Assembly: GCA_948745425.1 (NCBI GenBank)
Contig: CAPZDM010000002.1
Location: 1-55,436 of the forward strand
Origin: an uncultured Clostridia bacterium
GTDB taxonomy: Bacteria; Bacillota; Clostridia; TANB77; CAG-508
DNA: 55,436 nucleotides
Reading direction: 5' to 3'
In this document: piece after piece, positions 48,003-51,831 of the stretch
Position numbering within the stretch: the first letter of the stretch is position 1
Layout: the number at the start of each line of letters is the position of its first letter
Translations under genes and position numbers: made by a program
The notes under the pieces: generated by a model
Database searches by the model: none
What the model was told of the DNA's origin: nothing
Seen by the model: the letters and a program-made list of their open reading frames with translations, nothing else

Positions 48003-49499
48003 TTAGCTATTATAAAAATCTATTATCTTATTTTTCAAATTTTCTATATCTTGTTCTGAAATTTCTTTATCAAAATACTTCTCCAAAAATATTTGTGGCT
48101 TTCTTCTATTATCACTCACATTATAGTTTAACTGATTTTCAAATTCATGTTCTAAAAGCAAGCTTTTATTAATGTTTTCTAATATATATTCATTAATAGT
48201 CTTATGATTCTCATTGCATTCATTATCTCTATCACATACACAGATCACATCTATGCCAAATATTTTATTAAATAATATGTATAAATATGGAATTGAAAAT
48301 TTTCCTCCTGCAGTTGAAATATATACAATATTACTCTCTCTACAAACTATATCTATAAATATTTCTTCTGTTGCTCCTTCAATTATTAATATTTTGTCTT
48401 CAAACAGAGCATTAACTCTATTTCTATCCCACCACGCTAATATGGTCTTATTAATACCTTGTTTTAAAACATATTGGTAGTTTTTGTTTTTGCTTTTCAA
48501 TTCTAGATTGGCTTGATTTACATATTCCTTATATTCTTTATCTTTGTATTGAAATATCTCCACATTATTATCATTTACCTTTTTTAGTTTTATTATACTC
48601 CTAAATATATTTTCGTTTCTATATATTATATCTGGAGAATGGGTTGAAATTATGTATTGTGTATTTTTCTTATTATTGTTGATTTCATTTATTAGTGTCC
48701 TTTGTAATTTAACATTTAGAAATGTTTCTGGTTCATCATATAAAACGATAGTATATTTTTCGTTGTCTATTCCATATTTTAATATAGAATTAACAATATT
48801 CCTTTGAACTCCAGTTCCCAATTGACTTATTGCCTTTTCTTCTCCATTTTCAATAGCTTTTAACTCCATATTATTTTTTAAAATTTGTAATGTTTCAAAT
48901 TTTTTATTTGATAGTTCTATTTTTATATTTGAAAACATTATGTCTTTATTTAACTTTTCAAAGTTTGCTTCTGAAGAATTTTTTAATTCATCTACATAAG
49001 AATTTAAATCTTCATTTAATTTCTCTAATTTTTTATCTAAACTATCATTTTTTGCAAGCAATTTTGATATTGCTTTTGAAATATTCGTTGTAGTTTTTGA
49101 AATGTCAATCTCATTTTCGTGATTCGAAACTGCTGGTATATATATAACTTCACCAAATATACTACTTGAAATTGCTTTTTTCATGTCAATATTATCATTA
49201 TAATAATATTTCTTATTATTATAATGAATTACAATTGTATCATCTATAATGCTATCAATTTCATTTATAGTTTCTACAATTTTATCCTTGTCAGTATTAT
49301 CTAAAAAATAGGTAATTTCTATGTCAGCTTCCTCTTTTCCAACATAAAATTGATTTATCGCTTCTAATATTCTCGTTTTTCCAACATTATTATCAGACAC
49401 AATAAAATTTAACATTTCATGTATATCTATGCTTACATTCTCTATTCCTCTAAATTTATTTATTTTTATATTAGTTATTTTCATAAATGTCCCTTTCAA
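48003..49499 (-). CDS. OLD-family ATP-dependent endonuclease (ABC-type ATPase plus C-terminal Toprim)
   Basis: KINKFRGI...SDNNVGKTRILEAI (P-loop), QLGTGVQ (signature-like), IVLYDEPETFL (Walker B), ISTHSPDI (H-loop). Toprim: LIIEGATEEIF and VICVCDRDNE. Confidence 0.8.
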   Translation of the reverse strand: MKGTFMKITNIKINKFRGIENVSIDIHEMLNFIVSDNNVGKTRILEAINQFYVGKEEADIEITYFLDNTDKDKIVETINEIDSIIDDTIVIHYNNKKYYYNDNIDMKKAISSSIFGEVIYIPAVSNHENEIDISKTTTNISKAISKLLAKNDSLDKKLEKLNEDLNSYVDELKNSSEANFEKLNKDIMFSNIKIELSNKKFETLQILKNNMELKAIENGEEKAISQLGTGVQRNIVNSILKYGIDNEKYTIVLYDEPETFLNVKLQRTLINEINNNKKNTQYIISTHSPDIIYRNENIFRSIIKLKKVNDNNVEIFQYKDKEYKEYVNQANLELKSKNKNYQYVLKQGINKTILAWWDRNRVNALFEDKILIIEGATEEIFIDIVCRESNIVYISTAGGKFSIPYLYILFNKIFGIDVICVCDRDNECNENHKTINEYILENINKSLLLEHEFENQLNYNVSDNRRKPQIFLEKYFDKEISEQDIENLKNKIIDFYNS

Positions 49500-51831
49500 A
49501 AATATTTTTTATTTCGTCATCTTCATTTTCATAATTTATAATAATTTCGTCGTCTTTATCAATTTTATTAATATAATCCATATTACTATCTATATAACTA
49601 TCGATATCTATGTCTTCTTTTATTCGCTCATCGTTTATTTCTTCATAGTCTATATCTACATACCTTGCAAATCTATCAATATTCTCTAATATTTCATCAT
49701 CTATATAAACTTTCAAACTATTCCATACTTCTCTTCTTATTTTCCCTTGACCACTTTCTATATACTCATTTATTTCTTCTTTACTTGCTTTTTCTAAAAT
49801 TTGATATATCTCTTCATTAATATTCATTTCTGCACCTTTTTGTATTTCATTTTCAATTTCTGCTATTATATATTGTTTAAGTAAATCTAGCATGTTGTCT
49901 ATTTTTTTTGAATCTGTTATATTTTGATATAATTCAATATACTCATCCATAAAACTTTCTAAATTGTCTAGTTCTAACTTTTGTAATATAAAATTCATCT
50001 TATATGTATCATGTAGCACTTGATCTAAATTATATAATTCTATCATTTGATTACTTTTTATGAAATTTATTATCATATTGCCATATTCTCTTTTCTCTTG
50101 TAGCGAATTAATATTTTCATAACTTCTTTCAAAAGCAAGTATGACTAATTCTTTTATTTCTTCAGATAAGATTTTATACTTGTAGATTTGTTCAATATAA
50201 TAATAAAATATTGATTTGCTTAATACTTTCATTCTTAATAAATCTCCTGAAATAACTTTTTCTTTTATAATTTCTTCTACAGCTTCACTATCTGAAAGTT
50301 TTAATAATTGTTCTACATATATCGCATTATGTGCAATATACATTTGTTCATTTACATTTAAATCTAGCTCATTCTTTATATAATCATTTATTGATGGATT
50401 TAATACTCCAACTTTTATCCTATTGCTATCTTCCAACTTGACAATTAGAGAGTCTGATAGTCTGTATATAACTCTATCAAAAGTATTTAAAGAAGTATCT
50501 ATATTATATAATCCCTTTATGCTTTTATTATACACTTCTCTTAGAATATTTATTTCAATGTAATTATTAGTAAGTGAATATAAGATTAACATTAGTGTTC
50601 TATCTTCAGTAGATAATCTATTTTCAAATTCATCTTTCCATACATCTTTAGGATTATCCAAATTTTTTATAATATAATTATAATATTGTTTTGAATCTAT
50701 ACTCTTATATCTATTTTTTTTGGTAACATACTCAATTATTCTAGGATTATAGTTCTTATGCTTTACTATATTTAAATATCTCTTATCTTCTTTAATATTA
50801 ATAAAATGCTCTCTTGGTATATTATTAAAGAACATATGATTATATAGAATTTTGGCTTTTTCTACTTTTTTCATATTATCTAAATTAATAAGGTATGTAT
50901 TAGTTTCATACTCTTCTATAAGTTCATTAAAATTTATATAACGATTTTTTGCTTCATTTAAAATTGTTATTCTTGAATTTAAAATTAGCTTTTTATTTTT
51001 ATTTCTATGTATAAATGACAATAAAGTTTTTAACTCATTTGGTTCAGATTCTTTCAAATTTAAATAATGTTGTCCTAAAAAATCATCTAATAAGACTATT
51101 TCTTTACTATCATTATCCATAGATAATATGTTCTTAATATTAGAAATATTGTTATCTGTAGTATATCTAACTTTATATCCATCACTAGCATATTTTAATA
51201 ATATCATCTTAGAAGTTGTACTCTTTCCAACACCTGGTCCACCTATAATAATTATAATATTTTCCTTATTCAATTTATTATATGCCTCTACATATCCCTC
51301 TGTTTCAACAAAACTCTTAATGTGATTTTCTATATCATACATTAACTCATCACAATCGATAAATATATTTTTATTATTTATTAATGATAATACATTTGTT
51401 GAATTTATCCATAATTTATAATTTTTCTTTACTATATCAATATTGTCTTCTTGTTCTAAAAAATCATTCATTTGTATGCCATCTATAATATTGGTAGCCT
51501 CTTTCATGTATGGAGTTAATATTTCATATAATTCTTTCTTATTTTCTCTTGTTAGTTCCATAGAAGTACATAAATAGTACTCATTTGGACAAATTCTCTG
51601 TATCTTTTTAAACTCTTCATTTTTTATTACACTTTTTAAATTTGAATATTTACTATTTGAATATTGTTTTACTTGTATTATTATTTTAGGATTATCAATA
51701 TTATCGCATATATCTATTCCTCCATCTTTTCCTCTTGCAAATCTGTAAAGTTTCTTTTTGAGTATTTTTGACATAGTGTCTAAACATAGTACTTCATATT
51801 CATAATCATTTAAATTTTTCAAATTATACAT
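49471..51831 (-). CDS. Mrr-type restriction-endonuclease domain fused to a STAND-like P-loop NTPase, with a helical C-terminal region and an acidic tail
   Basis: N-terminal YEYEVLCLD...GKDGGIDICD...IIIQVKQY (PD-(D/E)xK, Mrr_cat-like). IIIIGGPGVGKST (Walker A), EIVLLDDFLG (Walker B). About 450 aa of helical region and a D/E-rich tail. The stop overlaps the OLD gene start. Confidence 0.7.
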   Translation of the reverse strand: MYNLKNLNDYEYEVLCLDTMSKILKKKLYRFARGKDGGIDICDNIDNPKIIIQVKQYSNSKYSNLKSVIKNEEFKKIQRICPNEYYLCTSMELTRENKKELYEILTPYMKEATNIIDGIQMNDFLEQEDNIDIVKKNYKLWINSTNVLSLINNKNIFIDCDELMYDIENHIKSFVETEGYVEAYNKLNKENIIIIIGGPGVGKSTTSKMILLKYASDGYKVRYTTDNNISNIKNILSMDNDSKEIVLLDDFLGQHYLNLKESEPNELKTLLSFIHRNKNKKLILNSRITILNEAKNRYINFNELIEEYETNTYLINLDNMKKVEKAKILYNHMFFNNIPREHFINIKEDKRYLNIVKHKNYNPRIIEYVTKKNRYKSIDSKQYYNYIIKNLDNPKDVWKDEFENRLSTEDRTLMLILYSLTNNYIEINILREVYNKSIKGLYNIDTSLNTFDRVIYRLSDSLIVKLEDSNRIKVGVLNPSINDYIKNELDLNVNEQMYIAHNAIYVEQLLKLSDSEAVEEIIKEKVISGDLLRMKVLSKSIFYYYIEQIYKYKILSEEIKELVILAFERSYENINSLQEKREYGNMIINFIKSNQMIELYNLDQVLHDTYKMNFILQKLELDNLESFMDEYIELYQNITDSKKIDNMLDLLKQYIIAEIENEIQKGAEMNINEEIYQILEKASKEEINEYIESGQGKIRREVWNSLKVYIDDEILENIDRFARYVDIDYEEINDERIKEDIDIDSYIDSNMDYINKIDKDDEIIINYENEDDEIKNIFERDIYENN

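Follow-up and report, generated by a model that had tools for sequence, protein, structure and literature searches.

Nucleases of the OLD family are classified by their partner: class 1 enzymes have none, class 2 enzymes go with a UvrD helicase, class 3 enzymes with a retron, and in class 4 the protein is split, as in PARIS. The OLD literature has yet to settle what activates the class 1 enzymes, and one of them, P2 Old, has recently been reported as a tRNA nuclease, according to the abstract of PMC12445682. On the side of predicted defence genes, PDC-S73 of the PADLOC database is one of 145 "phage defence candidates" proposed by guilt-by-embedding in restriction-modification (R-M), BREX and DISARM loci (bioRxiv 10.1101/2024.01.29.577857). 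Here we describe a locus in which a PDC-S73 gene and an OLD gene overlap. It lies in 55,436 nucleotides of an uncultured Clostridia bacterium (contig CAPZDM010000002.1 of assembly GCA_948745425.1), called the window below. The minus-strand pair consists of a gene for a 786-residue nuclease with a STAND NTPase (51831..49471), called STAND for short, followed by a gene for a 493-residue OLD nuclease (49484..48003). Both components come from known or catalogued families, and what seems new is their association. A first-pass annotation, made from the letters alone, had not recognised the pair as a named system, and we found no such system in PADLOC or in the literature searched; searches for "PDC-S73", "PNTD1" and "nSTAND" returned nothing on the pairing. 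Some statements of that annotation need correction. The STAND protein does not stand outside every catalogue, since it is already a PADLOC single-gene candidate. OLD nucleases do occur alone or with UvrD-like helicases as in Gabija, as it said, but also with retrons and split in PARIS.

The two open reading frames (ORFs) are of lengths impossible by chance in DNA of 23-25% G+C, and therefore are not chance ORFs. The STAND gene (49471..51831, on the minus strand like all features of the locus given below) was assigned to the PDC-S73 family by its ORF, Pfam, PADLOC, homologues, AlphaFold2 and fold matches. It fits PDC-S73 over its full length (E 1.5e-137, residues 2-780 on profile positions 4-751 of 752). 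The four parts proposed by the first-pass annotation, namely an Mrr domain, a P-loop NTPase, a helical region and an acidic tail, agree with Pfam, the AlphaFold2 model and a count of charges. The Mrr-type PD-(D/E)xK nuclease domain takes up about residues 1-110 (51502..51831, an approximate boundary). Pfam Mrr_cat matches residues 5-60 barely over threshold (21.9 bits, cutoff 21), many homologues carry a precomputed PF04471 match, and the D...QxK core (G34, D36, G38, D40, Q53 and K55) is invariant in 106 homologues. PADLOC Aga_REase-... models match the N-terminus as well, and the "Aga_...PNTD" models cover the first ~145-190 residues (residues 2-178 and 2-196). The NTPase core, residues 174-334 (50830..51312), is identified as nSTAND3 by PF20720 (E 6.7e-41, 140 bits against a cutoff of 27.2) and by invariant columns. 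Its Walker A is GGPGVGKS (196-204) and its Walker B is LLDD (247-250), with G197, P199-K203, D249 and D250 invariant across the same 106 homologues. Walker B is followed by an invariant FLGQ-Y with the nearly invariant H255, and further downstream the motifs NYNPRII and NPS-ND are also invariant.

What does the rest of the protein look like? Conservation drops beyond about residue 510, with the exception of a terminal F-E-R motif. By alignment, AlphaFold2 and charge count, the segment 49474..50304 holds a poorly conserved helical region (about residues 510-755), which is a putative sensor, and the acidic tail (residues 701-786), where 30 D/E stand against 9 K/R in the final 86 residues. Within the tail (49474-49731), F778 of F-E-R is invariant in the 106 homologues, and the 250 residues before it are barely alignable; the motif may be an auto-inhibitory or docking peptide. 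That the acidic tail mimics DNA and auto-inhibits the protein is speculation. The AlphaFold2 model (predicted local distance difference test, pLDDT, 85.6) begins with an alpha/beta domain, continues with the P-loop core and is helical over its long C-terminal half, with helices from about residue 320 to 755. Its best Foldseek neighbours belong to the STAND immune proteins, namely human SAMD9, Avs4 bound to a phage portal and Avs5 filaments (E 1e-8 to 1e-6), with the low template modelling (TM) scores expected of multi-domain proteins. A sequence search of the PDB with STAND gave P-loop noise only. The first-pass annotation had spoken of an Avs/NACHT-type architecture. The Avs-like domain order and fold hold; the NTPase is of the nSTAND3 type found in Avs5. 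A NACHT identity was rejected, since Pfam gave no NACHT match and only NPHP3_N below its cutoff (E 0.021). Membership in Avs is doubtful: PADLOC gave none of its Avs models at E <= 0.1, and Pfam matched neither TPR nor Sel1, against the Avs-like domain order and the fold similarity to Avs4 and Avs5; we keep the resemblance only as one in the likely working.

The second gene (48003..49484) encodes a class-1-type OLD nuclease, an ABC ATPase with a Toprim domain, as judged by Pfam, the PADLOC Old model, a profile match to PDB entry 6P74, AlphaFold2 and Foldseek. Pfam finds AAA_15 (E 3.7e-18), AAA_21 and OLD-like_TOPRIM (PF20469, E 1.4e-5). The ATPase invariants are K36 and T37 of the P-loop, G223-x-G225-x-Q227, D250 and E251 of Walker B, and H282; the first P-loop residue is Ser30, where Gly is usual. 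The Toprim domain lies at about residues 360-460 (48105..48407; PF20469 on residues 360-420) and has the invariants E369, G370, D418-x-D420, E449 and K462. E373 was invariant in a first homologue alignment and is nearly so in a wider one. Because the catalytic ATPase and Toprim residues are all invariant, the enzyme is complete, though compact, and the annotation was right to call it so. "Old" is the top PADLOC model (E 4e-30), ahead of those of GajA, AriA and PtuA. A profile of 25 homologues run against the PDB gave the Thermus scotoductus class 1 OLD (6P74) as the best match, and the AlphaFold2 model (pLDDT 83) gave the same structure in Foldseek (E 1e-16, TM 0.55), where GajA and the retron Eco8 effector came next. 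The subfamily of about 490 residues is tiny, with 30 clusters in 5.8 billion proteins, and in IMG/VR nothing was found save one match of 43 residues.

The known OLD partners were looked for in turn. No UvrD, reverse transcriptase or non-coding RNA gene was found near OLD among the neighbouring ORFs, and no Rfam family in 45000-55436. Gabija was rejected, as no UvrD/PcrA-like gajB lies downstream; a terminator, a 750-nt spacer and a serine recombinase are found there instead. A retron-associated OLD was rejected for want of a reverse transcriptase among the neighbouring ORFs and of an Rfam family in that interval, and PARIS because the ATPase and Toprim are fused in one 493-residue ORF and are not separate polypeptides. 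The enzyme is otherwise like a stand-alone one, yet a STAND gene overlaps it and the pairing recurs.

The overlap announced by the annotation is indeed present. The stop of STAND and the start of OLD share 14 nt, ATGAAAATAACTAA, at 49484..49471, read directly from the sequence, with GAAAGGG just upstream. The program-listed ORF of OLD is longer (48003..49499); its start was set at the ATG at 49484 because this Shine-Dalgarno stands in front of it and all homologues begin MK(I/L). The overlap together with GAAAGGG suggests, from the sequence, that the translation of STAND and OLD is coupled. STAND has its own ribosome-binding site, GGAG at 51839..51842, 7 nt 5' of its ATG and 42 nt downstream of a methyltransferase stop. 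A single intrinsic terminator, as the annotation had it, serves both genes 3' of OLD (47976..47947), formed by a 12-bp stem and a 6-nt loop and followed by TTATTTTTT.

Is this pairing found in other genomes? A gene-neighbourhood check found it in three lineages of the OLD subfamily; the annotation had listed its absence from other genomes as a refutation. In clade A (OLD 71-100% and STAND 64-100% identical to those of the window), STAND always lies upstream of OLD, the two genes overlapping or standing no more than 11 nt apart, and the cassette is constant: a Bsp6I-like restriction endonuclease, a C5 methyltransferase, STAND, OLD and a large serine recombinase. In clade C (OLD 40%, STAND 29% identical to the window's), STAND is followed by OLD after 3 nt in at least three flanking contexts, and the STAND also matches PDC-S73 (E 2.4e-95). 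In P0144 (OLD 45% identical) the order is reversed, with the STAND gene 19 nt downstream of OLD. Clade B OLDs (52-58% identical) are without STAND and come after R-M systems of type I or of the MmeI type, or after a MutH/methyltransferase locus. Outside the subfamily, Toprim-bearing OLDs adjoin STAND in Hungatella (L019, +5 nt), Enterococcus (L028, upstream, 22 nt), Flavobacterium (L078), Asaccharospora (L085) and a gammaproteobacterium (L086). STAND and OLD have been inherited together, as tightly coupled genes, in two or three diverged lineages whose genomic surroundings differ. The next OLD relatives by profile gave no STAND-linked case: P0154 lies in a type I R-M system, P0156 in Gabija, and P0153 is cut by a contig end.

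Some of these loci deserve a separate remark. The clade B OLDs (L009 6001-7648; L010 4552-6199; L011) come right after the R-M genes and are often overlapped downstream by a gene for a 56-residue DpnD-PcfM protein, which may be a different small partner of this clade. Beside STAND, L016 keeps an OLD remnant and L026 an ATPase fragment. L016 is the closest relative in the genome collection, and both of its genes are damaged (3757-6429): the STAND (87% identical) stops early, at about codon 730, and so loses the acidic tail, and the OLD lacks codons 62-465 by an internal deletion. In L041 (2928-4844) and L042 (3381-5297), a 638-residue ABC ATPase lies at +2 nt of STAND; it is no OLD and matches the PADLOC multi-gene candidate PDC-M62A. 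It appears that ABC ATPases generally are drawn to the STAND family.

A positional test gives a quantitative description of the adjacency. For 80 species-level STAND loci, all OLD-like matches within ±7 kb were counted by gene rank. As many as 13 of the 17 OLD-like genes stand at rank ±1, which makes up 149 of the 789 gene slots (odds ratio 15, Fisher p 2.9e-7). Most of the adjacent genes share the strand of STAND and leave gaps below 100 nt. Chance does not account for so frequent a recurrence of the pairing in unrelated bacteria. At the same time, about 84% of the 80 loci have no OLD-like neighbour, which speaks against an obligate pairing.

Did the two partners evolve together? Within clades they did, with STAND/OLD identities of 83/83, 65/71 and 84/86%. 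Between lineages the divergence of the partners is uncorrelated (rho 0.11): against L019 the window has 45% identity in STAND and 20% in OLD, against clade C 29% and 40%. One ancient co-diverging pair was rejected on this rho and these mismatched identities. The gene order flips between lineages, and the OLD-linked STANDs are dispersed over the STAND tree. The sister of clade A, L017, has a recombinase directly after STAND and no OLD, and L018 and L019 have nearly identical STANDs with an OLD in L019 only. In the OLD tree, linkage to STAND prevails in the 490-residue subfamily and in its nearest outgroups (L078, L085). Partners have been exchanged from lineage to lineage, a point against an obligate complex. 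As far as sequence comparison goes, all this points to two modular, individually viable genes that were re-associated repeatedly and under selection, and it does not fit one ancient obligate complex.

We therefore favour, with a probability of roughly 0.55, a facultative, co-transcribed two-nuclease anti-phage module whose protection would be additive or synergistic. The pair forms the distal half of a four-gene cassette, a Bsp6I-like restriction enzyme, a C5 methyltransferase, STAND and OLD, carried on a serine-recombinase island within a penicillin-binding-protein gene. The fast-evolving C-terminal helical domain of STAND would bind a phage-derived trigger, on which the nSTAND3 module would oligomerise in an ATP-dependent way. 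The oligomer would gather the N-terminal Mrr-type domains, leading to DNA cutting and abortive infection. In OLD, an ABC-ATPase dimer would control the Toprim nuclease, which would nick or degrade nucleic acid; the enzyme is predicted to be an ATP-regulated nickase or exonuclease, possibly a tRNA nuclease. Two self-sufficient effectors would thus have been drawn repeatedly into one operon, with protection most likely additive or synergistic; the second nuclease would widen or strengthen that of the first. OLD might process the breaks made by Mrr, or be a second sensor or a back-up once a phage blocks STAND. The two genes appear autonomous because STAND stands alone in phage HM T, on plasmids and in L017 and L018, clade B OLDs occur without STAND, and rho is 0.11.

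Several points weigh against this facultative module and should be noticed. The adjacency statistic has the local neighbourhood as its sole control, and the species representatives are not fully independent. Among the 13 adjacent genes, 5 are ABC ATPases without a detected Toprim and 3 are on the opposite strand. The trees are neighbour-joining trees without support values. PDC-S73 itself is only a predicted candidate. Moreover, an obligate two-component system would likewise be compatible with the tight translational coupling of the pair and with its survival over 29-40% divergence.

Such an obligate system, a new STAND-associated OLD class in which STAND licenses OLD, or OLD restrains the Mrr-STAND, in a complex like GajA-GajB or AriA-AriB, is the strongest rival, though we hold it unlikely. 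In every paired lineage the genes overlap or nearly abut, the pair travels as one block from context to context, and in Gabija, PARIS and retron Eco8 the OLD ATPases work as parts of complexes; the enrichment at rank ±1 and the STAND-linked branch of the OLD tree point the same way. The large share of STAND loci lacking an OLD-like neighbour, the near-identical STANDs with and without OLD, the OLD-free clade A sister and the other contexts of clade B all speak against it, and the uncorrelated divergence and variable gene order are hard to square with a co-evolving interface. An obligate STAND:OLD complex is accordingly the less likely form of the association. A more far-reaching version is similarly doubtful in our view: STAND-associated OLDs would be a fifth kind of OLD system, with the Avs-like sensor and OLD forming one machine, in which STAND oligomers recruit or license OLD, or OLD guards STAND against phage inhibitors.

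Could the two genes be mere neighbours, two unrelated single-gene defence systems side by side in the island and on one transcript, with no functional interaction? The annotation had named as fatal to its proposal that each gene match a defined single-gene system and not depend on the other, and the first half was found: the PADLOC entries PDC-S73 and Old are both single-gene entries. Each family is R-M-associated or embedded on its own, defence genes cluster, and most members of each family are unpaired. Yet OLD-like genes, instead of being spread in the flanks, concentrate at rank ±1 (13/17, p 3e-7), mostly on the same strand with short gaps, and the two families have been adjoined repeatedly, in different phyla and in both orders. 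We consider this explanation improbable. Last, the pair might have no anti-phage function and instead be a stabilisation or addiction module of the island, or help the serine recombinase in processing DNA. This could be read from its travelling with that recombinase and with an R-M system (itself an addiction-type module) on the element inserted in the penicillin-binding-protein gene, but it is most improbable, since clade C, L019, L028, L078, L085 and L086 have the pair but not that recombinase, recombinase and methyltransferase are frameshifted here while STAND and OLD are intact, and both families have defence-type relatives.

The STAND family itself is much wider than the pairing. It comprises at least 892 clusters, mostly of Bacillota and typically of 770-790 residues, and 195 loci were confirmed in species-representative genomes, including Bacteroidota, Pseudomonadota and Melainabacteria. 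Stand-alone copies annotated as "restriction endonuclease" lie on plasmids and in the temperate Clostridium phage HM T, whose homologue HMT_19 (L112 4501-6864; 787 residues, 45% identical) lies between replication genes and a sigma factor gene. In viral data STAND was found in just 4 viral contigs and 3 phage records, and the plasmid collection held no DNA nearly identical to the STAND-OLD locus. A phage or plasmid origin of this exact locus was rejected on these grounds, together with the near absence of the OLD subfamily from viral data.

Directly upstream of STAND lies a type II R-M pair (51874..53440), consisting of a Bsp6I-like restriction endonuclease (53440..52916) and a C5 methyltransferase (52837..51874). 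The PADLOC matches are REase_II (E 9.5e-66) and MTase_II (E 1e-87), Pfam agrees, and both genes are present in all clade A loci. The methyltransferase is frameshifted near 52074 by a +1 C insertion (GGA[C]GGACAT, against GGTGGCCAC in L001), which splits off motifs IX and X. The insertion is real, as the same one is found in an independent metagenome-assembled genome (L016). The 174-residue restriction enzyme gene beside it looks intact, so how does the host tolerate it? Upstream of the R-M pair, two further island genes (53602-55281, minus strand; 419 and 111 residues) have no Pfam or PADLOC match. The sole match of the 111-residue protein is phrog_6058, to which no function is assigned, and this part of the island varies between relatives.

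One island end lies at 45318..47338, where a large serine recombinase (47338..45631) is followed by the PASTA-domain remnant of an interrupted penicillin-binding-protein gene (45548..45318); the same arrangement is found in L001, L005 and L006. The recombinase is frameshifted near 47237, after codon 34, by an extra C before GG, so that the catalytic-serine motif YIRLSQ is out of frame; its relatives are split in L001 and L006 and whole in L005. Judged from these reading frames, the island is probably immobilised. In relatives (L001 554-2299 and 11863-12096), the same island parts the transpeptidase gene from its PASTA tail, which makes the cassette an intervening element in a penicillin-binding-protein gene. 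Its second junction is to be sought beyond the end of the window. A second large serine recombinase homologue (12780-14766, minus strand) is split over two frames into ORFs of 282 and 401 residues. Directly beside the island are a type I-B-like cas operon (39333-45110), with Cas1, Cas5, Cas7/DevR, a Cas8b-like CXXC protein and Cas6, and a CRISPR array (36645-38870) of at least 34 repeats with a ~30-nt repeat, CTTCACATTCTAGTATATTTATATAACAAC, at a period of about 66.

What would the pairing mean? If validated, the association would be a new variant in the partner-based classification of OLD nucleases, and a recurrent STAND sensor partnership would add an OLD partner type and a testable activation route. 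If the two proteins are one machine, NLR-type pattern recognition would be linked to the OLD/ABC-ATPase branch of bacterial immunity. The pairing would also give the candidate PDC-S73 a concrete experimental handle, through comparison of the pair with either gene alone. Should the genes be independent, the locus would remain a clean example of a compact R-M-centred cassette stacking several nucleases on a serine-recombinase element.

How does the locus compare with the described systems? PDC-S73 is matched over the full profile, and like the candidates of that screen the gene lies in or beside an R-M cassette. PDC-S73 was defined as a single gene, whereas STAND has an OLD-like gene as immediate, mostly same-strand neighbour here and in about 1/6 of loci. 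With Avs4 (Mrr-STAND-TPR, PDB 8DGF) the protein shares an Mrr effector and the order of effector, STAND NTPase and variable helical C-terminus; with Avs5 (SIR2-nSTAND3, PDB 9JAP and 9NC9) it shares the nSTAND3 type of NTPase and the same domain order. The model matches both in Foldseek at E 1e-7 to 1e-6, with low TM-scores (0.24-0.27). It differs from Avs in being half the length of Avs4, in lacking any Avs, TPR or Sel1 match, and in its acidic tail with the terminal FER.

The OLD protein resembles the class 1 enzymes (P2 Old, Thermus scotoductus OLD 6P74 and Vibrio cholerae OLD) in having ABC ATPase and Toprim in one polypeptide with no helicase, retron or split. It is shorter than these (about 490 residues), belongs to the narrow 30-cluster subfamily and has Ser for Gly at the start of the P-loop, and three of the four sampled lineages of this subfamily (clades A, B, C and P0144) are coupled to STAND. 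Gabija (GajA with the UvrD-like GajB) is similar as a two-gene operon of an OLD nuclease and a second NTPase. However, the partner here is a STAND NTPase with its own nuclease, it usually comes first, the association is facultative, and GajA models score far below the Old model on this protein. PARIS (AriA ABC ATPase and AriB Toprim) shares the ABC-ATPase/Toprim defence logic and the frequent association with R-M systems, whereas the OLD of the window fuses ATPase and Toprim, and AriA models cover its ATPase part only.

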